Virus record (IMG/VR): IMGVR_UViG_3300020161_000678
Coordinates: 1,232-65,231 of that record
DNA from: a virus
Lineage: Duplodnaviria > Caudoviricetes
Reading direction: 5' to 3' (one strand)
DNA length: 64,000 bases
Both the position numbers and the translations under genes were made by a program. Below the pieces are notes generated by a model. That model was not told the origin of the DNA. It did no database searches and worked only from the letters and a program-made list of their open reading frames with translations. Positions 15,892-47,460 of the stretch are shown in pieces. The stretch's first letter is position 1; each line of letters opens with the position of its first letter.

Positions 15892-16998
15892 TTACCCACT
15901 AATATCTACAGCACCAATAACGTGAAGAAAATTTCCATTGCAACCGCTTAACGCAATGAATCTTTTATCTTTGCTGAACCCAAAGGCAATGTGGCTCATG
16001 GTAGTCAGTACCCGTTTAATCAATTCAGGATTGATTTTAAGATCACCAGTAGGAACAGCCGAGTCCATTTCAATTGAGTCATCGCTGATTCCAGACTTAG
16101 TCGTAGTATCAACCACCAAGTTCTTTCCTCTGCTTTGGAACACTGTGATTTCACGCTCATCCGGTGTGACCAGGATACACGCTCTGTCAATGATGTTTGA
16201 TAACTCATCAGGAATTTCATACCAAGATGCAATCATCTGCTCATACATCTCAGTGGTGCCTTTGTAGTTAGATTTTCTTTCTAACTCAATGAGCCTGGTG
16301 AACACTGTCACATCTGTATCCACTTCAGCAACCAAGAATGAATTATCTTCTTCTTGCGATACCAGGATGCGAATAAAGTTTGATTCTTCAATTTCAGATG
16401 ACTTGGTTTTAGTCAGACGAATCAACTGCTCACAGAACGCACTTGGAATAATCAAGTCGATTGAACATTCTGGCACGTTTGGAGAGTCGTAGCTATACCG
16501 ACTCAAGGAGTATTCGTCCATTGAGTAGAATTCTAAGTGTCTGTCTTTTATAATCAATCTGACACCGTTTCTTTCAGGGTTTGAAAGATCGTGAGACGTA
16601 CTGATTAAACAGTTAGACATACCACTGATAACGTCAAGCGGAATGTTTATTGCTTCGCATTTTGAAAGATCAGGCATTGAGAAAATGAAATCTTCTTTAG
16701 GAAGTGACGGAAGCTTGATTACCGATCTGCCACACTTAAAATTAACTTCATCTGGTTTTTGAATAATCTCGACATCCTTTCTTGGAAGTGATGCCAACAT
16801 CTTCACCAGTAATGTGCCTGGTAATGCACATTCCAAGCCGCTTTCAAACTTGTATTCTATAGCCTGCATATCGTTATACGCCACGACCTTACCGTCACCA
16901 AAACAGAAGTGAGTTAAGATTGGAGCAAACGATTTCTGCATTAAGAAAGGGGTACACTTGCCTACCACACTTTCTATGATGGTCTTATTTATTGTCAT
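15892..16998 (-). CDS. dnaN: DNA polymerase III beta-like sliding clamp
   Basis: 368 aa, PILTHF, LPGTLL..MLASLP, KCGRS.IKLPSLPKEDF, clamp-like three-domain length. Confidence 0.75.
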   Translation of the reverse strand: MTINKTIIESVVGKCTPFLMQKSFAPILTHFCFGDGKVVAYNDMQAIEYKFESGLECALPGTLLVKMLASLPRKDVEIIQKPDEVNFKCGRSVIKLPSLPKEDFIFSMPDLSKCEAINIPLDVISGMSNCLISTSHDLSNPERNGVRLIIKDRHLEFYSMDEYSLSRYSYDSPNVPECSIDLIIPSAFCEQLIRLTKTKSSEIEESNFIRILVSQEEDNSFLVAEVDTDVTVFTRLIELERKSNYKGTTEMYEQMIASWYEIPDELSNIIDRACILVTPDEREITVFQSRGKNLVVDTTTKSGISDDSIEMDSAVPTGDLKINPELIKRVLTTMSHIAFGFSKDKRFIALSGCNGNFLHVIGAVDISG

Positions 16999-18616
16999 GT
17001 AAAGTCTCCGTCATGCTTATTTGCACCTTATAATTGCCGGAACTCAATTGATTTCTTATGGCTTGGAAAGCTGCTTTATGGCAGTCCTCTAAAGTCATAG
17101 TCTTTGGCAATGTTAATTCAAAATCCAACAATTCGATTGTTGGCGTAATTGTTACAGATACAATCTGACTTACATCAGATGCACTGATAACATTGAGATA
17201 CTCATTCAAATCCTCTTCTGTTTCACAAAGATCTGATACCTCAATTTCTTTAGGAAGCTCAACCACTTTTGTGACTTCTTCAACCAGTGCTTCTACTGGA
17301 GGTTGCGGTACACCCATTGGTCGAGGCTTGATAGCGAACTTCTTGCGCTCTAATATTTTACCTACGTCGAATCCCATTTGTCTTTTAGGAGCCTCTTCTC
17401 GGTTTTGTTTAAACTCAACCTCATTCAAGACCGAACTGTTAAGTTCTTCAAGACTGAGGTCTTCTAAGTGTGGTTTATCAGCCAACGAAACTTCATACCT
17501 GCGTCTGGAATCAAGTGTAACCGATATGATTGCTTTACGATGTTCTTCCATAGCATCCATATGTTCCAGATCAAGTAAACCTCTGTTGAAATATTCTTTA
17601 ATAGCCAGGTTTGAGTTTGCATAGGCATCGTACCAGTAGCTCAATAAGAACTTTAGGTCGTTTTCTCGCTTTAAAATGCGATCAACAATCCGTAAAGTAT
17701 TTGGAACAGTGTTGGTGGACGATGCTGCTGTACCTGCGAGATATAAGTTTCCACCATGACCAAAATCGAATGTTCTTTCATAATGTTTCTTTAACTCTTT
17801 TTCAGCATTAATGAAGAACATTGCATTGATGTAATCTCTTTCGTAGTAGCCAGGATTGCCTTCAGCTTGCGCCAAGGTTGCATCAGCTTCAATGGACTGA
17901 AGATAATCTTCCAGCATCCTAATGTCAATGCTTGTCAGCTTGAGTAGGTGTGAAGCGTCTGAGTATCTACCCATAGTCATGGGTACTGCTCTGACCTTTT
18001 GTGGGAAGTAGTTATATCCGGTAACTAGATTGTTTTTAACAATGAAGTCAGGAACTTGAATATGACCTAACCGTGATCCAAATGACCATGTACTGGCATC
18101 ACATGAATAGAATGGATACATTCGCAGCCCTTCTAAAGCATTGGCAGCGAATCCGTGAACTTTTACTCTTGGTGAACCATCAGGGCGTTGAACGTACTCC
18201 TTGAACACTTTTTTGATCCAAGGTTTGAACGCCTCAATATCTTTCCCTTTGTTGATGATACCGACCCCAAAGTAATCATAGTTATCTACAATTTTAGATA
18301 ACCATGAAAAGTCTTCTCCTAAGTGAAATGCTGGGATAGGATGAAGTCCATTTGACTCCATGTACTTCAAAATATCCCAGGTGTACTTAGCATGTCCGAT
18401 AACATCCAAGGTGACATAGAATTCAAAAGAAGGTCCCATCTCATGCAAATAACCGATGTACCGATCCAAAAAGCTTTTAAACAATCTTGATCGTACTACC
18501 CTGAAATCTACACCCTCAGATCCTCTGAAGTTGTTGTTACCTTCTTCCTTAAGAAATTTGTTGTACCAGCTATGCGCTCCTGAATCTAGCGATAACCAAA
18601 ATGACTTACCTTCCAT
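16985..18616 (-). CDS. TGT/DpdA-like guanine transglycosylase-fold protein with C-terminal extension
   Basis: LDSGAHS, YVTLDVIG, PIPAFHLGED, KVHGFA, YPFYSCDASTW; FolE and QueD-like genes nearby. Confidence 0.7.
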   Translation of the reverse strand: MEGKSFWLSLDSGAHSWYNKFLKEEGNNNFRGSEGVDFRVVRSRLFKSFLDRYIGYLHEMGPSFEFYVTLDVIGHAKYTWDILKYMESNGLHPIPAFHLGEDFSWLSKIVDNYDYFGVGIINKGKDIEAFKPWIKKVFKEYVQRPDGSPRVKVHGFAANALEGLRMYPFYSCDASTWSFGSRLGHIQVPDFIVKNNLVTGYNYFPQKVRAVPMTMGRYSDASHLLKLTSIDIRMLEDYLQSIEADATLAQAEGNPGYYERDYINAMFFINAEKELKKHYERTFDFGHGGNLYLAGTAASSTNTVPNTLRIVDRILKRENDLKFLLSYWYDAYANSNLAIKEYFNRGLLDLEHMDAMEEHRKAIISVTLDSRRRYEVSLADKPHLEDLSLEELNSSVLNEVEFKQNREEAPKRQMGFDVGKILERKKFAIKPRPMGVPQPPVEALVEEVTKVVELPKEIEVSDLCETEEDLNEYLNVISASDVSQIVSVTITPTIELLDFELTLPKTMTLEDCHKAAFQAIRNQLSSGNYKVQISMTETLHDNK

Positions 18617-18632
18617 ACCACCTCTTATAATG

Positions 18633-19106
18633 TTATTCTTGCCTAATTGGTACGTCGAGTCTGTTTGAATGGAAAGCGGCTATTGCTGCCAACTTACCAT
18701 GAGCCTCGTCACGTTTCCGTACCTCCGCATCTGTTAGCAACTTTACCTCAGTGTTAACCAGAATGTTTGCTGCCTTTTTCATTTCTTTGGCAAAAGATGA
18801 TTTTAAGTTATCCATAGCAAAGTTAGTTTGCTCTGTAGGCTTAATGATCTGATAGCCAACTCCTCTAACAGATCGTAAGCACTTCTTGTACTCAGTAAGC
18901 ATAGCCCATCTGAATCCCTCCATGTTTTGGAGGAACTCAAAATTGAACTTTTCAAACTCTTTCTTAGTACAAACTTCTGGTTCAACTAATGCAAAGTTCT
19001 TATAGAGCCATTCTTTTGAAATGGTTTCGCCATAATCAAACAAACGATTGGCTCTATAAGCGGCAGAAATGAAGATCTTTTCGAGATCACCTTCTACCTT
19101 GTCCAT
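18633..19106 (-). CDS. Putative winged-helix protein, partner of the Cas7-like gene
   Basis: FDYGETISKEWL...LRSVRGVGYQII wing-like motif followed by a helical C-terminus; starts 1 nt after the Cas7-like stop. Confidence 0.55.
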   Translation of the reverse strand: MDKVEGDLEKIFISAAYRANRLFDYGETISKEWLYKNFALVEPEVCTKKEFEKFNFEFLQNMEGFRWAMLTEYKKCLRSVRGVGYQIIKPTEQTNFAMDNLKSSFAKEMKKAANILVNTEVKLLTDAEVRKRDEAHGKLAAIAAFHSNRLDVPIRQE

Positions 19107-19107
19107 G

Positions 19108-19713
19108 TTAGCTCTCGTCTTTTATACGCATTGATTTAAAGCTTTCGACCTTGAAGCGTCCGAACATGCCACCCTTTTCAGGTCTGAAGCCGCCCAAGCC
19201 AACATACTTACCTGCGTCAACAGCAGATTTAATAAGTTGGGCTTCGTCAATGACTTTCTCATCCCAAATACAGTTAACTGTCAAGCTCCAAGGGTTGAAC
19301 TTGGGACGGTATGCCATAACTCTTGACTTACCGATAACCACACTTCTGCAATCGTAGTATTTACCTTCCCACAATTCATCCTTGGTTAATTTTGCACCGT
19401 ACTCTAATGGTACGAAATCGTCAAGGCAAAGCAGACCACGTTTCAAGTGCATGCCTAGCTTGCTAAGTTTTCCGCCGTTGATGATAGTGGCACGGATGTT
19501 TTGAGTTGGAATGATTACTCCAGCTTCGTCATCCCAGTACAAAGAGCCTTCCCACTGACCTCTGGCAATAGCCAAATGATCTTCGTAGGTTTTCTTTTGT
19601 TTATTGGTGAGAACTTTCTGTCTTACTGCATCTTTGTCAATTGGGTTCGCCAATCGGTCGCATGAGAGTAAAATAGGTGAACTGCCTTTGATGTTTAAGG
19701 TTGTTTGGTACAT
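19108..19713 (-). CDS. Stand-alone Cas7/RAMP-like protein (Vipr-like)
   Basis: N-terminal strand TLNIKGSSPILL, IIPTQNIRATI (RAMP IP..x.IKG-like), RPKFNPWSLTV, C-terminal glycine-rich loop AGKYVGLGGFRPEKGGMFGRFKV. Start moved to MYQTT (GGAG RBS). Confidence 0.75.
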   Translation of the reverse strand: MYQTTLNIKGSSPILLSCDRLANPIDKDAVRQKVLTNKQKKTYEDHLAIARGQWEGSLYWDDEAGVIIPTQNIRATIINGGKLSKLGMHLKRGLLCLDDFVPLEYGAKLTKDELWEGKYYDCRSVVIGKSRVMAYRPKFNPWSLTVNCIWDEKVIDEAQLIKSAVDAGKYVGLGGFRPEKGGMFGRFKVESFKSMRIKDES

Positions 19714-19728
19714 GACTTTCTCCAATTT

Positions 19729-19755
19729 GTGCTATGCCCACCGCGGGCGGCGCAC
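19729..19755 (-). other. GC-rich hairpin between the array and the Cas7-like RBS
   Basis: GTGC-GCC-GCCC-GCGGT-GGGC-ATA-GCAC, anomalously GC-rich; no U-tract, so not called a terminator. Confidence 0.5.
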
Positions 19756-19786
19756 GTTAATTAATAGTCTTACGTTAGCGATTTTA

Positions 19787-21090
19787 AACAATCACTGGAA
19801 ACATGTTTTCAACAAACATGAATCCGCTGATTACTTAATCAACTCTTTACATTACCTTGCTTCGCACCACTCGACATGGACTTGCTTAAATCCGCTGCAT
19901 CTTACAAGACTAAACACAACTTCACACACCTTATAGTGATTTTAAACAATCACTGGAAACATATCTTATCAAGATATGAATCCGCTGATTACTAAATCAA
20001 CTCTTTGCAATACAGCACATCGCAAGGCCGTTCTGTGCTCTACATTACTTCACAACAATCACTGGAAACATATCTTTGGTAAGATATGAATCCGCTGATT
20101 ACTTAATCAACTCTTTACTGTACTCTTACATTAAGCTACTAAGCACAACTTAGCCTAACAGTGCATTACTCAACACCGCTATCAATGTGTGATTATTATA
20201 TAAAAATTCACTATCAAATAACAGATCAAAACTGTTAAATAATTAAATGATTTAAGAATAATCACTGGAAGCATATCTTTGTTAAAATATGAATCCGCTG
20301 ATTACTTAATCAACTCTTTGCACTACTGATCTTTACATCGCTTTACTTCACATTACAAAACTTGGATATACTCTGATCCGCCTCGTTCTAAAACAACCAC
20401 TGGAAACATATTTTTGTTAAAATATGAATCCGCTGATTACTCAATCAACTCTTTACAATACAATTCTCCACCATACTTCATCAGACTTCACATCACTTGA
20501 CATAGCAGCACTGGATATTTTAAACAACCACTGGATTTGGCATCTCTTACGATTACCAAGTCCGCTGATTACTCAATCAACTCTTTGCAGGACAGTACAT
20601 CGCATCACTGAACTCAACTGGACGCTACTTTCGCAGAACAATCGCACTACATTGCTGGGATCTATTTCCCTAAAGTGATCTAAAACAATCACTGGAAACA
20701 TGTTTTCAACAAACATGAATCCGCTGATTACTTACTCAGCTCTTTGCGCTACATTGCAATACAGAAATTCGGAAAGCGGAACCTGGCATGACACTACTAG
20801 GAATCAGTAGGCATTGCTGCGAGTCAGTGATCTTAAATAATCACTGGAAACATATCTTATCAAGATATGAATCCGCTGATTACTTAATCAGCTCTTTACA
20901 ATACATAACATCTCTTCACAGAACCAGACTCTGCATCGCTGCACCTGACTCGGCTAAACATTACTATCTAGTGATTCTAAAACAATCACTGGAAACATGT
21001 TTTCAGCAAACATGAATCCGCTGATTACTAAATCAACTCTTTACTGTACTAAGCATTACTACGCTCCACGATACTCAAGTAAGCTTCATT
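19787..21090 (-). repeat. Nine-unit non-coding array: 62-64 nt conserved repeat alternating with 5-nt-periodic tracts (putative guide RNAs)
   Basis: Repeats at 19787-19848, 19945-20006, 20054-20116, 20257-20319, 20392-20454, 20523-20586, 20684-20745, 20836-20897 and 20981-21042. Consensus AAYAAYCACTGGA-hairpin-RTCCGCTGATTACTHAMTCARCTCTTT. Each is followed on the plus strand by about 9-16 RCHNN pentamers. Confidence 0.95.
20195..20226 (-). promoter_or_regulatory. Internal array promoter (ATCTG-N21-TATAAT) driving units 3 to 1
   Basis: Matches the genome-wide fixed-spacing motif. Confidence 0.7.
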
Positions 21091-21103
21091 AAAATAAAAA
21101 CAT

Positions 21104-21135
21104 ATTATATAAAAAACCACTTCAAGTTAACAGAT
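21104..21135 (-). promoter_or_regulatory. Array leader promoter (ATCTG-N21-TATAAT) driving units 9 to 4
   Basis: Matches the genome-wide fixed-spacing motif; lies just upstream of the first pentamer tract. Confidence 0.7.
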
Positions 21136-21157
21136 TCAAACTTAACTTGTTGATTTA

Positions 21158-22066
21158 CTATACCTTATTGCGTCTAACAATGTTATTAAAAATTGATTGA
21201 TGCAGTAAGGCTGGTGATCTTGTAGTACACTTAGCACACATGTCTGGCAAACAACCTGACAAATGTTGCGCTCTAAATTCTTTAACAGCTTTTGAATTGT
21301 TCCAAATCTCTTCCAACGAAGATTCATTTAGATTTCCAAAAATTACTTCTTTTCCAAATGCCATACAGCATGGCACAACATCTCCATCTGAATGAACCGA
21401 CACACTTAACCAAGGATTCAAACATAACTCTTTTGAAGCTTCAACCCTTTGTTGAGTGTAAAGATTAGTTGAACTGTCCTTGATTATTCGTACCTCACAA
21501 TCCCATTTCAAATCATCAACTATTTCTTGCAGTTCCGCTGCTTCTTCCTTGGCATTGTTTTTGACAACTTCGTTATCCATATCAATAACTTGTAAGTCAA
21601 TTTGTACCTTGGATTTACGTTCGGTTTTAGCTTGCATAAGCAGGCTGATGTTATGCTCTAGCTCGACGAATGTTCCGTTAACTCTGATCTTTTCATAGTT
21701 GCGAACTGAGTCAACAGATATGGTTAAATAGTCTAACTCAAGGAGTAAGTCGATATGCTTATGAATCAGCAGACCGTTTGTACTCATGCCAGTTATAACT
21801 TTACCCAAGAATGGTTCAACAATTTTGGATAATTTTTTATTTAACAATGGTTCGCCTGACATCTGGAACTCGATGAAGTATGATCCATCTAAGTCTCTCT
21901 CAGCAATTGTCCTGGCGAGGTCAACACTTAACGCAAAATCATCCCTATGTTTCTCCTCAACAAATCGAGGGCACATAGGGCACTTTAATTGACAGGCAGA
22001 GTGTGCTTCAATTTGGTAAATTGACGGCACTCTCGGGTTGAATATTGGCCCTTCTAAAACTTTCAT
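21158..22066 (-). CDS. Radical SAM / SPASM-domain protein
   Basis: SACQLKCPMC (CxxxCxxC), SGEPLL, STNG; C-terminal CLNPW...GDVVPCC..FGNLNESSLEEIWN..CAKC. Start moved to MKVLEG (GAGG RBS). Confidence 0.85.
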   Translation of the reverse strand: MKVLEGPIFNPRVPSIYQIEAHSACQLKCPMCPRFVEEKHRDDFALSVDLARTIAERDLDGSYFIEFQMSGEPLLNKKLSKIVEPFLGKVITGMSTNGLLIHKHIDLLLELDYLTISVDSVRNYEKIRVNGTFVELEHNISLLMQAKTERKSKVQIDLQVIDMDNEVVKNNAKEEAAELQEIVDDLKWDCEVRIIKDSSTNLYTQQRVEASKELCLNPWLSVSVHSDGDVVPCCMAFGKEVIFGNLNESSLEEIWNNSKAVKEFRAQHLSGCLPDMCAKCTTRSPALLHQSIFNNIVRRNKV

Positions 22067-22195
22067 AAACACCTCGAATTTAAGCGGTTTTAAGCGGCTA
22101 TTTTTCAAGCCGCTATGATGGTATTACTTAAACAATGAAACGGCTTAAACAGCCAGATTCTTGCCAATTATCGCTAGGTTTAGCACTGGCTTTAG

Positions 22196-24723: not shown

Positions 24724-25875
24724 TTACTCGTCTTCGTCTATGTGAAAAGATGACAATGATTTACCAATCATTGTCTGTAATGATGCCTTGCATCTGGCAT
24801 CCAGCATCTCAGCATTTGCCTTAGCTAATGAGTAATGCTGATCTAGTTCAAACAATTCAATCCGTTTAATCAATTCTAAAGCTTCAAACACTCTGCTTCT
24901 TCTTGCCGAATCCAAACTGGCTAAACTAACATGATACCTGAAAGCATCGAATATTGTTTCTTTGTATGAAAGAGCGTCAGGAACTATAGGAATACAGCCA
25001 GCAAAAACCGATTCTACCATTGAAATGCCGAACGTTTCTTGATACGCAAATGAGATGCTATACTTGCATTTCTTCAGCAACTCATAGTATTCTTTCTTTG
25101 TTTTGCAAAGCTCATGAGTGACCTTTACTTCCAAAGGAAGCTTATGTGTGACTATTGCATCTTTCAGTATTTCAAGTTCTTTCATACCTTTTTCATTTGA
25201 AAGCCGGTGCGGAAATGCTATCCAGTTTTCTTTTGAATGAACTTCTTGCTCAGTGGCTCTTAAACTGTAAGGCCAGTCTTTGATGCAGTCATCTTCATAA
25301 AACGGCAAGAACGTTACAGACACCTTGTTTGCCAATGTTTCTATGATTTTTACAGAACCAACTTTGTTGGCATAATCAAAGATAAGCTTCTTATGAAAGT
25401 TTGTGGCAACAAAAATGTTGTCTGCAATGAACATCCAACCAAGCTGGAATTCTTTAGCCCACAAACCCATGCCGCTGGTGTACGTCAGATCATGTTCGTC
25501 CCATGTACCGGCATGAAAAATTCCATTGATCTGAATTTTCATACCTTCCATCATGTTCTCAACATAACGAAGTTTCTCGATACCAGGAAACCACAAGTCA
25601 TGAAAGAAAAGACTGAAGTTTCGTTCACCATCTTCATACTCATCCCTGATGCGAGCCAGGATTCTAGCCATTTGAGTAGACTTGTAAATGTTGGTAGCAA
25701 ACGGATCTAAAAACAAATTAGATTTAATAGTTGATGAAGGCGGAGTGTCACCTAAGATAGTATGAAAGCGTATGGAATCTGAAGCAATTTTAGATAACTC
25801 ATGTTCAGACCATTTAAGCCATTGAACTGAGTATCTATTTTCAATCGGTTCTATTGGAACGTTTATAATTAACAT
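24724..25875 (-). CDS. GT-B (GT4-like) glycosyltransferase
   Basis: FPHRLSNEKG, YQETFGISMVESVFAGCIPIVPD.LSYKE. Confidence 0.75.
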   Translation of the reverse strand: MLIINVPIEPIENRYSVQWLKWSEHELSKIASDSIRFHTILGDTPPSSTIKSNLFLDPFATNIYKSTQMARILARIRDEYEDGERNFSLFFHDLWFPGIEKLRYVENMMEGMKIQINGIFHAGTWDEHDLTYTSGMGLWAKEFQLGWMFIADNIFVATNFHKKLIFDYANKVGSVKIIETLANKVSVTFLPFYEDDCIKDWPYSLRATEQEVHSKENWIAFPHRLSNEKGMKELEILKDAIVTHKLPLEVKVTHELCKTKKEYYELLKKCKYSISFAYQETFGISMVESVFAGCIPIVPDALSYKETIFDAFRYHVSLASLDSARRSRVFEALELIKRIELFELDQHYSLAKANAEMLDARCKASLQTMIGKSLSSFHIDEDE

Positions 25876-25885
25876 ACAACCTCAC

Positions 25886-26452
25886 TTAAAGAGATCTAAA
25901 GAATTCTGCCTTACTGGTCTCATTCTCAAAACAACCTGTAAAAGCATTGGTTACAACACAGCTATCAGTCGCCCTAACACCGCGCATCTGCATACACATA
26001 TGCTCACCAGATACTTTTACGATGCAACCCTTTGGCTGCAAATACTTTTCAAATATCTGGACTATATCTGTGGTCAACTGTTCTTGAAGTGCTGGTCTGG
26101 CAGCTAACAATTGTATGACTCTTGGAACCTTACTCAAACCAATAACTCTGTTAGACGGAATGTATGCGAAGCTTATCTCATACCTGACGGGTAAGAAGTG
26201 ATGAGGACACATACTCCATGCTGTCACATTCTTTGTGACAATCATCTCGTTATAGTTTGCCGGAAAGTGCTTGCTGAATATACCTTGGAGTTCTTCATCG
26301 GAATCAGCATTGAGACCTCTGAATATTTCGGCATATGATTTTGCGAATCTTGCTGGGGTTTCTTTGAAGTTAGCGTCCTCAGTATCAACACCCAGTGCTT
26401 GTAGGATGTTTGAGAAACTATGTTCAATGATCTTTTTGTTTTCTTCTTGCAT
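25886..26452 (-). CDS. folE: GTP cyclohydrolase I
   Basis: ETPARFAK, SMCPHHFLP, IGLSKVPR, LQEQLT, GEHMCMQMRGV. Confidence 0.95.
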   Translation of the reverse strand: MQEENKKIIEHSFSNILQALGVDTEDANFKETPARFAKSYAEIFRGLNADSDEELQGIFSKHFPANYNEMIVTKNVTAWSMCPHHFLPVRYEISFAYIPSNRVIGLSKVPRVIQLLAARPALQEQLTTDIVQIFEKYLQPKGCIVKVSGEHMCMQMRGVRATDSCVVTNAFTGCFENETSKAEFFRSL

Positions 26453-41748: not shown

Positions 41749-41876
41749 TCTCTGCTGGTGGGAATCGAACCCACGACCAACTGCATGGTGGTAACCTTAT
41801 CCATTCAGTCACAAGTGACAAGATGTCTGAATAAGACTTTTGGGCGGTGGCTCTACCAACTGAGCTACAGCAGAGA
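41749..41876 (-). ncRNA. tRNA-like RNA with a Y-RNA-type bulged helix in place of the anticodon arm (element A)
   Basis: Acceptor UCUCUGCUG/CAGCAGAGA, D arm UAGCUCAGUUGGUAGAGC, T arm GUGGGUUCGAUUCCCAC; insert carries GAC[U]GA/UUGUC. Confidence 0.75.
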
Positions 41877-45867: not shown

Positions 45868-47460
45868 TGCTAATCTCCCAATTTAATGTCTCGTATATTA
45901 GTTTCTGAAACTCAGATACTAAGTTGTTAGCCGCTACTTCCAAACTTTTTGAAAAGTTGCGCTCGGGACGGCTATACCCGCGTTTACGTTCGTAATTCAG
46001 ACCAGCTATAAAAACGTTTCCATTGTCAAGATAACGTGCTTCAAACCGAATATATTTACCTGGCATCACAAATTCTCTGTTGCCTTTAGTATAAACAGTC
46101 CATCCCTGTTTGATCTTACTTACTTTAAAATCCGCGATATTGAATACAATGTATTCCATCAATCACCTCTTCTGGATCAACTAATTGTTCTGCAGTAACC
46201 TGACGTTTTAAGCCAGGAAGGCTGTTCAGATACTCTTCTTCATTTATCAGAAATCCATCTAAATCTTTTTGTGATTCAAATGATCTGATATACTCATCAA
46301 CCTTTGTAAAACCACATCCTTGTTGAGTAACCTTTATTAAGCACTTCATTGTCTTTCCTTAAAATGGTGCCCCGTCATGGACTTGAACCACGATAAGCAG
46401 ATTATGAGTCTGCCGTACTAACCTTTGTACGAACGGGGCTATTTCCAAGGTCGTCGTGACCACCATTCTGCAATGGCGAACATGACACTAATTCTTTTCT
46501 GTCCAACTATCAAAAACTCGCCTTGTTGCTTCCATAGCTCAAGTCTTGAGCAGTATCCAACAAGCACTTCTAGTTCATCTGAAGCCTCATTCAATAGTTG
46601 TTTAAGATAAACAACATCAGTTGATTCCTCAGAGTGTCTTATCTTGTTAACAAGATCAAGAATTGAGCTATATCTTTCCATTTATTTTCCTTGCCACCAA
46701 GCTTTCGCTATTTCTTCAGCAACTTGCTTGACTATACCTTGGGGTACTTGCGTATATACTTCATTTATTCTGATATACGCTTTAATTTGTCTCAGCAAGT
46801 AATTCCTGAAATTAGGGTAGCTTTGACAATTCTCGAAGAACTTGTAAAGTTCTTTATCAGAGTTAAGCACAGCATCAACTCTGCATGACAGTGCTTCTTT
46901 CATGTTAGCGTTATCAGATTCTATTGACATTTTCTTGATCCACATTAACAGCATAAATGTTTTCTTTACACAACAGAGCCGCTGCTTCTTTGCAGCACTT
47001 CATTGTGACCGTTGATTCCGTTTCTGAAACTATTTCCCAATCACTTCCACAATGCTTTTCGATCTTGCCATAAGCTTCCTTGCTTTTGTAGATCAGCAAA
47101 GTAACTCTGTCTGGTGAAATATGGTTCTTTTCACCACACCAAGGACAAAACCATTCTTTCTTTTCTTCAATCGGTGCATCACCAATACTCCACCATTTTT
47201 CACAGTGGTCACATTGGAAATGTATCAACTTCTCAAGTGAGGTCAACATATACTTTTGCTCCATTTTCATTAAAGTAATGGTCTACTTCATGAGTCTTGC
47301 ACCACTGTTCTGCATACGGTTTTAAACCGCTGCTGTATCTTTCAGTGCTTGCTACAGGACTCAACCTAGTTTCTCCGAATTTGATAGGAGCAAATAGTTT
47401 GTAGATTGCGAACCCTTGTTGATTAACTCCGGTCATTCTAATTTGAACTACTGTACTCAT
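45860..47460 (-). other. Six short hypothetical proteins flanking a tRNA
   Basis: ORF track; 46914-47270 has CDHC/CPWC Zn-ribbon motifs. Confidence 0.5.
46365..46439 (-). tRNA. tRNA with CAU anticodon (Ile2- or Met-type)
   Basis: Full cloverleaf GCCCCGU/ACGGGGC-A-CCA, anticodon arm GCAGA-CUCAUAA-UCUGC, T arm CGUGGUUCAAGUCCAUG. Confidence 0.88.

Follow-up and report, generated by a model that had tools for sequence, protein, structure and literature searches.

Organization of the locus

We analysed a 64,000-nt stretch of DNA from a virus of the Caudoviricetes (positions 1,232 to 65,231 of IMG/VR record IMGVR_UViG_3300020161_000678; hereafter called the window), in which nine copies of a repeat alternate with short variable tracts upstream of a gene encoding a small Cas7-like protein. 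We propose that this array belongs to a VIPR system and that the repeat is the 3′ tail of each of its guide RNAs (vrRNAs). VIPR, first described in 2026, is a CRISPR-like, RNA-guided DNA silencer, which was reported to comprise the Cas7-like protein Vipr, an accessory Vap protein, and vrRNAs in which GGY/NN pentamers precede a structured 3′ tail that does not vary (10.64898/2026.04.26.720920). The window makes up most of a 65-kb IMG/VR contig that is estimated to be ~44% complete, and the phage that carries the locus should have a genome of roughly 150 kb. Its genes lie on the minus strand. They comprise a module for replication and a set for 7-deazaguanine modification of DNA, with products that include DNA polymerase A, the clamp and its loader, a gp32-like protein, a ligase, FolE, a DpdA-like transglycosylase and a radical SAM enzyme. 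A blastn search of the locus against the GenBank phages returned no match.

The repeat array occupies a 1.4-kb non-coding gap that separates the radical SAM gene from an open reading frame (ORF) of 205 aa, vipr. It consists of two sub-arrays, sub-array 2 (units 9 to 4) and sub-array 1 (units 3 to 1), each of which opens with a tract behind a promoter-like box and closes with a repeat; the tail therefore lies 3′ of its tract. The features are listed below in the order in which they would be transcribed; P1, P2 and P3 are the hairpins of the tail, letters A to C denote alleles of the P2 distal stem, R3 is a family model and L084 is a sister phage, all of which are described in the following sections.

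21103-21115, minus strand: promoter-like box before sub-array 2 (units 9 to 4); 13-nt AT-rich motif
21043-21095, minus strand: guide tract 9, of xGYNN pentamers, first element of sub-array 2; phase display, with no repeat before it
20970-21042, minus strand: tail unit 9, with P1, P2 (allele A) and P3; repeat alignment and folds
20898-20969, minus strand: guide tract 8 and linker; 14 pentamers in phase
20826-20897, minus strand: tail unit 8, with P1 (C-G replacing U.G), P2 (allele B) and P3; best R3 match (16.6 bits, E 9.5e-05)
20746-20825, minus strand: guide tract 7 and linker; phase display
20674-20745, minus strand: tail unit 7, with P1 cut to 5 bp, P2 (allele A) and P3; R3 match of 15.7 bits
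20587-20673, minus strand: guide tract 6 and linker; phase display; guide also in sister phage L084 with few changes
20524-20586, minus strand: tail unit 6, with P1 and a P2 that has an unrelated distal stem (allele C), no P3; repeat alignment and folds
20455-20523, minus strand: guide tract 5 and linker; phase display
20393-20454, minus strand: tail unit 5, with P1 and P2, no P3 partner; repeat alignment and folds
20320-20392, minus strand: guide tract 4 and linker; phase display
20246-20319, minus strand: tail unit 4, last of sub-array 2, with P1, P2 and P3 (7-nt loop, one G.U); direct reading, RNAfold favouring the long stem
20194-20206, minus strand: second promoter-like box, before sub-array 1 (units 3 to 1); 13-nt AT-rich motif
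20117-20185, minus strand: guide tract 3, with a one-base phase slip; phase display; guide common to L084
20055-20116, minus strand: tail unit 3, with P1 and P2, no P3 as the next tract follows directly; repeat alignment and folds
20007-20054, minus strand: guide tract 2, of 10 pentamers; phase display
19935-20006, minus strand: tail unit 2, with P1, P2 (allele B) and P3; repeat alignment and folds
19849-19934, minus strand: guide tract 1 and linker; phase display
19777-19848, minus strand: tail unit 1, last before vipr, with P1, P2 (allele A) and P3; repeat alignment and folds
19108-19725, minus strand: vipr, Cas7-like RAMP protein of 205 aa; BLASTP, profile and AlphaFold2 (AF2) model
18633-19106, minus strand: vap1-like accessory gene, 157 aa; SUSP1 alignment and phrog_5926 match

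The 13-nt AT-rich box, which has a TATAAT-like core, occurs eight times in the window, where 0.3 occurrences would be expected, and seven of these sites are on the coding strand (6437, 7484, 20194, 21103, 32585, 35573 and 44467, minus; 54906, plus). The boxes lie mostly just upstream of coding-strand genes, one of them ~35 nt before the start of the helicase gene, and the motif is probably the phage's own promoter. Inside the array, promoter- and terminator-like sites were not more frequent than in shuffled sequences, and promoters or terminators for each unit were rejected on these counts; the individual units would therefore have to be released by processing. The model of the family-consensus tail weakly matches the 62-nt segment that separates the last tail from the start of vipr (19725-19770, minus), with 8.4 bits and an E value of 0.011 when 1.7 kb were searched. 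This segment includes a short GC-rich hairpin and may be a vestigial tail or a leader structure of vipr.

The repeat folds into a structured module

The core of the repeat is found nine times in the window and nowhere else in it, whereas dinucleotide-preserving shuffles are expected to contain none. The copies span positions 19788-21042, are each 61-63 nt long, and are read as RNA from the minus strand. Tandem Repeats Finder detected nothing in the array, because the units are not arranged head to tail. In the RNAalifold consensus of the nine units, a 7-bp hairpin, P1, is followed directly by the GGA/UCC closing helix of a second hairpin, P2, whose interior contains a 2x2 U-rich internal loop and then a distal stem of 7-8 bp. 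When folded singly, the units are far more stable than their dinucleotide shuffles (z = -3.2 to -6.1). A third hairpin of 7 bp, P3, is formed between the last 7 nt of the repeat and its 3′ flank in six of the nine units (1, 2, 4, 7, 8 and 9), which brings the length of the module to ~73 nt. In units 3-5, an alternative long stem is the minimum free energy (MFE) or centroid fold. Visual inspection of the window units for pairings of the pseudoknot or kissing-loop type revealed none that recurred consistently from unit to unit.

The distal stem of P2 is present as allele A in units 1, 7 and 9, as allele B in units 2 and 8, with further variants of B in units 3, 4 and 5, and as an unrelated stem, C, in unit 6. 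At two positions of the stem, G-C or C-G is exchanged for A-U or U-A on both sides. Over the nine units, 90.7% of the cells in the pair count are paired, compared with 26-54% when the partners are slid. Changes on both sides affect four pairs (seven cells), exclusively in P2; P1 displays no covariation within the array, its one change being the one-sided replacement of U.G by C-G in two units. Compensatory change within the array is thus real, and it is based on about three P2 alleles. The original prediction, which was made from the letters of the window, had claimed a nine-copy structured repeat with a first hairpin and a variable hairpin closed by GGA/UCC, on which RNAalifold and the z-scores agree; it had also described the exchange of stems among units 1/7/9, 2/8 and 6 with pairing retained, exactly as we found it, together with compensatory changes and a possible alternative long stem, both of which are borne out by the pair counts and folds given above.

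The strand of the RNA can be read from the fold itself. Seven of the nine window units have a U.G pair in P1, which would be a C.A mismatch if the opposite strand were read, and the same applies to a U.G pair in P3 of unit 1. Since conserved U.G pairs, in P1 of the window and in P2 of the relatives described below, become C.A mismatches on the other strand, they fix the sense of the RNA.

Covariation in related loci

A scan of IMG/VR with the single protein as the query gave no match; a query with an alignment recovered relatives, and IMG/VR holds ~300 Vipr relatives, of which 80 loci (numbered with the prefix L) underlie the counts given here. Three models were used: R1, built from the nine window units; R2, a covariance model from an alignment of 18 tails of the relatives; and R3, a broader family model. 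R1 was too specific, with only a few weak matches outside the window (in L021, L026, L029, L059 and L063). The closest relatives have arrays of AGCNN pentamers separated by modules of ~60 nt, which begin with a purine-ended triplet and continue with a P1 of 5 bp whose loop is mostly AAA, a P2 of 12 bp that abuts P1, and a P3 of 4-6 bp that abuts P2 and mostly carries a UUCG or GNRA-like tetraloop. With loops of these types on P1 and P3, no conserved loop is left for pseudoknot pairing.

Eighteen tails from 12 loci were aligned with MAFFT, unfitted to any model: 89.3% of the cells are paired, against 32-49% with slid partners, and the covariation score reaches 0.559, compared with 0.12 at most. 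R2 finds 218 tails in 76 of the 80 loci, and all except four weak ones are next to vipr and on its strand. Among the 109 distinct tails, 92.7% of the cells are paired (34-57% in slid controls), double-sided changes occur in nine of the 12 pairs of P2, and up to six pair types are seen at a single pair. These tails contain 64 different P2 stems, P3 folds in 99 of them, and two positions of P2 are U.G in 99 and 81 of the 109, respectively. The fitted alignment of 109 tails leans towards the model, and the unfitted MAFFT alignment gives the same answer. The original prediction had named covariation in homologous arrays beforehand as a check on its structured RNA, and in both alignments the outcome was strongly positive.

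The window tails can be connected with this family. R3 recovers eight of the nine, at the correct places and on the correct strand (best E 9.5e-05); in the MAFFT alignment, the junctions that flank P2 are common to the window tails and the relatives; and the non-Watson-Crick positions 3-4 of the window P2 are shared with loci L021 and L026 and with phage LESphi2. The locus and its ~300 IMG/VR relatives show that a large branch of the same VIPR type, cultured Pseudomonas phages included, uses a three-hairpin tail with a freely varying middle helix.

Guide tracts and the junction with the tail

When they are phased from their 3′ ends, the tracts read as xGYNN pentamers, in a single phase that extends into the repeat as far as its second base. 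Pentamers are in phase in all nine tracts; seven tracts have 9-16 units, and tracts 3 and 7 reach similar lengths if one tolerates a one-base slip and two degenerate units. The first position of the pentamer is relaxed in the window and may be A, U or G; a 'YNNNG' alternative pentamer is named in the methods of the first VIPR report (10.64898/2026.04.26.720920), and the relaxed first position fits it. In the closest clade (L006-L017), the last tract, next to vipr, ends with four or five identical AGCAA units, as at L011:3899-3963 and its equivalents; this tailless tract may be a guide that has degenerated or that is finished in another way.

The first triplet of the tail is A-G-A in all nine window units, and in the relatives its third base is G in 109 of 109 tails (xGG); the corresponding triplet is GGG in LESphi2 and GGG or GGA in the four vrRNAs of phage SUSP1. 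This junction triplet resembles the pentamer handle with a purine in place of the pyrimidine. Because the Y pocket of Vipr sterically excludes purines, according to a cryo-EM report (10.64898/2026.04.26.720927), the purine triplet would end the register of the protein, and we infer that it is a candidate stop signal for the filament.

Neighbouring proteins and assignment to VIPR

The product of vipr would be 201 aa long if the second Met is the start, as in the sister phage. BLASTP aligns it with SUSP1 Vipr at 35% identity (E 2e-35), and the profile of its relatives matches PDB entry 36pp_D, 'SUSP1 Vipr protein', with an E value of 9.3e-56. Its AF2 model (predicted local distance difference test, pLDDT, 89) finds its best structural matches in Csm3/Cas7. 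The C-terminal glycine-rich loop is invariant in 27 relatives, and the protein thus has the properties that define a Vipr, namely, a small RAMP protein with a single RRM and a G-loop. The vap1-like ORF begins 1 nt past the vipr stop codon; its product is 26% identical to that of the SUSP1 gene that follows vipr (E 1e-13), shares the GVGY motif with it, and is a putative accessory protein of the DNA-binding type. The array adds two further properties of VIPR: tandem 5-nt units with a conserved handle and variable NN and, in the window and the relatives, an invariable structured tail 3′ of each tract. The pseudoknot of the SUSP1 clade, which is not required of all VIPRs, did not emerge from our inspection. 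No Pfam cas match was found in the 20 flanking ORFs. Judged by these sequence features, the locus is best classed as a type II-like VIPR system and the repeat as the predicted 3′ tail of its vrRNAs.

The surroundings of the locus offer two further observations. The VIPR locus is embedded within the 7-deazaguanine modification set (16985-18616, 21158-22108 and 24724-26452), the members of which are the DpdA-like transglycosylase (phrog_887), the radical SAM/SPASM enzyme, FolE and a glycosyltransferase; the presence of a DNA-reading, G-rich guide system in a phage with modified G may be of interest with regard to self/non-self effects. Two Rfam tRNA matches lie on the minus strand, at 41750-41874 and 46368-46439, and the former covers 125 nt against a model of 71 positions, which implies a long insertion.

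Array turnover in a sister phage

The sister phage, L084 (a 116-kb contig, ENA ERZ19571604), has a Vipr that is 99% identical to that of the window, and its flanks are 91-97% identical. Its array (L084:2848-4000, compared with window 19726-21157) has seven units instead of nine, and window units 7 and 8 are absent from it. Some guides are common to the two phages with a few changes at NN, others are replaced, and P2 alleles are found on different guides than in the window. Whole guide-plus-tail units have thus been swapped; the array has turned over recently by recombination between tails, which are therefore also the sites where units recombine.

Discussion

What might the repeat do? We regard it as very probable that it is the constant folded 3′ module, or tail, of each vrRNA of a type II-like VIPR system in a phage of ~150 kb. 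We suggest that two transcripts start at the phage promoter boxes on the minus strand, each with several units, and that each unit consists of an xGYNN guide tract followed by a tail, which would present, in order, the purine triplet, P1, P2 (free in sequence and constrained in pairing) and P3. By homology with SUSP1, Vipr protomers would coat the pentamers, and the tail would mark the end of the filament, cap the 3′ end, and make the RNA a substrate for its own Vipr. The last of these roles agrees with the published notion that the common tail makes the RNA competent for Vipr complex formation (10.64898/2026.10.15.759431). In addition, the module would have to set the cut sites in the precursor from which single guides are obtained, because the units are without promoters or terminators of their own. 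The original prediction had advanced a 3′ cap, a processing signal or a loading handle for each guide, and, taken together, these functions gain support from the published role of the VIPR tail and the homology of Vipr and Vap1; capping and loading by the tail, as well as processing at it, are here argued from that likeness.

Several observations weigh against this interpretation. Transcription, the ends of the mature RNA and the binding of Vipr are carried over from SUSP1 by homology. Within the array itself the covariation is thin, and P3 has no partner in units 3, 5 and 6; because it is absent from these three units, P3 cannot be essential for every guide. The window tails diverge from the family consensus, scoring 2-7 bits under R2 and mostly 5-8 bits under R3. 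The MFE and consensus folds consist of three nested hairpins with no predicted pseudoknot, and it is a pseudoknot that caps the SUSP1 filament. Among the relatives, the tract that adjoins vipr has no tail at all in the L011 group and retains P1 only in L005. Searches for DNA targets under the 1-nt skip rule found none for any guide: exact 20-base gapped patterns of guides 5 and 8 had no match in IMG/VR, and when mismatches were tolerated, in a scan that covered the window and ~0.75 Mb of related loci, the guides did no better than their shuffled versions and did not target the phage itself.

An alternative that divides the module in two deserves consideration, even if we think it somewhat unlikely: the mature guide might keep the purine triplet and P1 as its 3′ cap, while P2, with or without P3, would be a processing or insulating hairpin between guides that is cut away. 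The P2 part of the R2 and R3 matches coincides with a hairpin that flanks every SUSP1 vrRNA, at five intergenic sites on the vipr strand; each match is weak (E 0.04-0.35) and none is individually significant. This SUSP1 hairpin, of ~10 bp (L086, KT454805.2: 2292-2316, 2424-2449, 3557-3581, 3705-3729 and 3848-3872), falls outside the mature RNA, given the tail of ~40 nt and the vrRNAs of ~100 nt stated in the first VIPR report (10.64898/2026.04.26.720920), and it may be a processing element shared with P2. The tract next to vipr that keeps only P1, in L005, would also suit such a division, as would the freedom of the P2 sequence (64 stems), which is expected of a processing site read by its shape. 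The long stem between the 3′ half of P1 and the 5′ half of P3, possible in the window and ~97% paired in the relatives, would join P2 in a duplex of ~22 bp, and on the family alignment this long 'rod' fold pairs nearly as well as the three hairpins. However, its covariation (a single covarying pair) is essentially one split between clades, and at places where the three hairpins pair perfectly it has to accommodate a bulge and a G.G mismatch. The long stem may be a genuine second fold, or it may arise from the similarity between the P1 and P3 stems. The last tail before vipr, in both the window and LESphi2, also keeps P2 and P3 with no guide following it, which speaks against such a division. 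A broader form of the same idea, which we find quite doubtful, is that the inter-guide module is a general, as yet undescribed VIPR array-processing unit with two folds, the three-hairpin form, with the triplet and P1 as cap, and the ~22-bp duplex; the latter would be cut by a host double-strand RNase, Vap or Vipr, which would free the single guides, the SUSP1 flanking hairpin would be the same element, and mature guides would keep only P1.

The other explanations depart further from the VIPR tail. The regular layout of repeats and variable tracts next to a Cas7-like gene, and the L011 group, where tracts outnumber repeats by one, would be compatible with a CRISPR-like repeat that stands 5′ of the next tract or is cleaved internally, so that a guide carries a handle at either end. 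We consider this very improbable, because the window sub-arrays open with a repeat-less tract and close with a tract-less repeat, the tracts have a 5-nt period and are not free spacers, no Cas6, Cas1 or Cas2 was seen among the 20 neighbouring ORFs scanned, and the mapped homologous system has its constant part 3′ of the tract (10.64898/2026.04.26.720920). A CRISPR array in the strict sense, with repeats of 23-50 nt, non-periodic spacers and cas genes, was also rejected, the repeat here being 61-73 nt long. To a self-cleaving ribozyme that separates the guides we give hardly any credence: VIPR arrays of types I and V interspersed with hammerheads exist (10.64898/2026.04.26.720920, Fig. S19 legend), and three helices meet in the tail as in a hammerhead, but the helices abut with no unpaired nucleotides at the junction, leaving no room for a conserved catalytic core, and no Rfam family matches the array at E values up to 1 except for an unrelated plastid motif (E 0.67). 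On these two grounds, a hammerhead or other self-cleaving identity was rejected. It is equally hard to believe that the repeats act as DNA, for instance, as promoters, terminators, protein-binding or recombination sites of each unit, and that their RNA fold is incidental. Two near-identical phages differ by the gain, loss and shuffling of units, and the breakpoints fall within the repeats or close to them, so the repeats do serve as recombination substrates; nevertheless, double compensatory changes maintain pairing across the 109 distinct tails, the conserved U.G pairs work on one strand only, and promoter- and terminator-like sites are no more frequent in the array than in its shuffles. The vrRNA tail thus remains our preferred explanation.

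As a kind of element, the vrRNA tail has been known since the preprints of 2026, and what our analysis adds is modest: a pseudoknot-free three-hairpin tail fold with strong covariation, the purine rule at the junction, the shuffling of units between sister phages and, possibly, the equivalence of P2 with a hairpin of SUSP1 that had gone unremarked. With its covariation pattern, the tail can serve directly as a model by which arrays of this kind are annotated and their strand is assigned. The purine triplet is a specific candidate for the stop signal of the Vipr filament and lends itself to testing. For engineering, the sequence of P2 would be the part that can be changed, in contrast to the junctions, the base of P1 and the closing pairs.

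Comparison with known systems

CRISPR repeats and the crRNA handles of class 1 systems resemble the window array in that a constant structured element alternates with variable guides and a Cas7-like RAMP protein coats the RNA. In contrast to those, the window repeat is about twice as long, which agrees with the original prediction that it is much longer than CRISPR repeats; the 'spacers' are periodic pentamers read by a gapped code, and the locus is phage-encoded, with neither an adaptation module nor Cas6.

The closest described counterpart is the type II VIPR of SUSP1. The two phages have Vipr (35% identical) and Vap1 (26%) in the same gene order, a DNA ligase gene upstream of the locus, guides built of 5-nt repeats in which G-Y is fixed and NN varies, and, after each tract, a constant structured element that opens with a purine-ended triplet. 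They differ in the tail, which in the window measures 61-73 nt and forms three simple hairpins, whereas that of SUSP1 measures ~40 nt and forms a hairpin and a pseudoknot, the sole fold to have been published for a VIPR tail. The first base of the pentamer is G in SUSP1 and A, U or G in the window; SUSP1 has one guide upstream and three downstream of vipr, whereas the window has nine, all upstream and in two transcription units; and only the window has P2 in several alleles within one array.

The Pseudomonas phages LESphi2 and Medea1 have Vipr proteins that are 44-45% identical to the window protein. LESphi2, a cultured phage of Pseudomonas aeruginosa, carries three clear P1-P2-P3 tails and a weaker fourth upstream of vipr, which match the family model with E values down to 7e-12, and there, too, a tail is the last element before vipr. 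The Pseudomonas loci differ from the window in having canonical GGYNN pentamers and GC-rich tails; the window tails have a longer P1 and P3 and score weakly against that consensus. The text of the VIPR papers gives no fold for the P. fulva tail, the 3′ end of which is not resolved by cryo-EM, and the three-hairpin tail is probably the tail of the Pseudomonas clade (P. fulva prophage) studied in those papers. Because LESphi2 carries it, the three-hairpin tail is not peculiar to uncultured phages.

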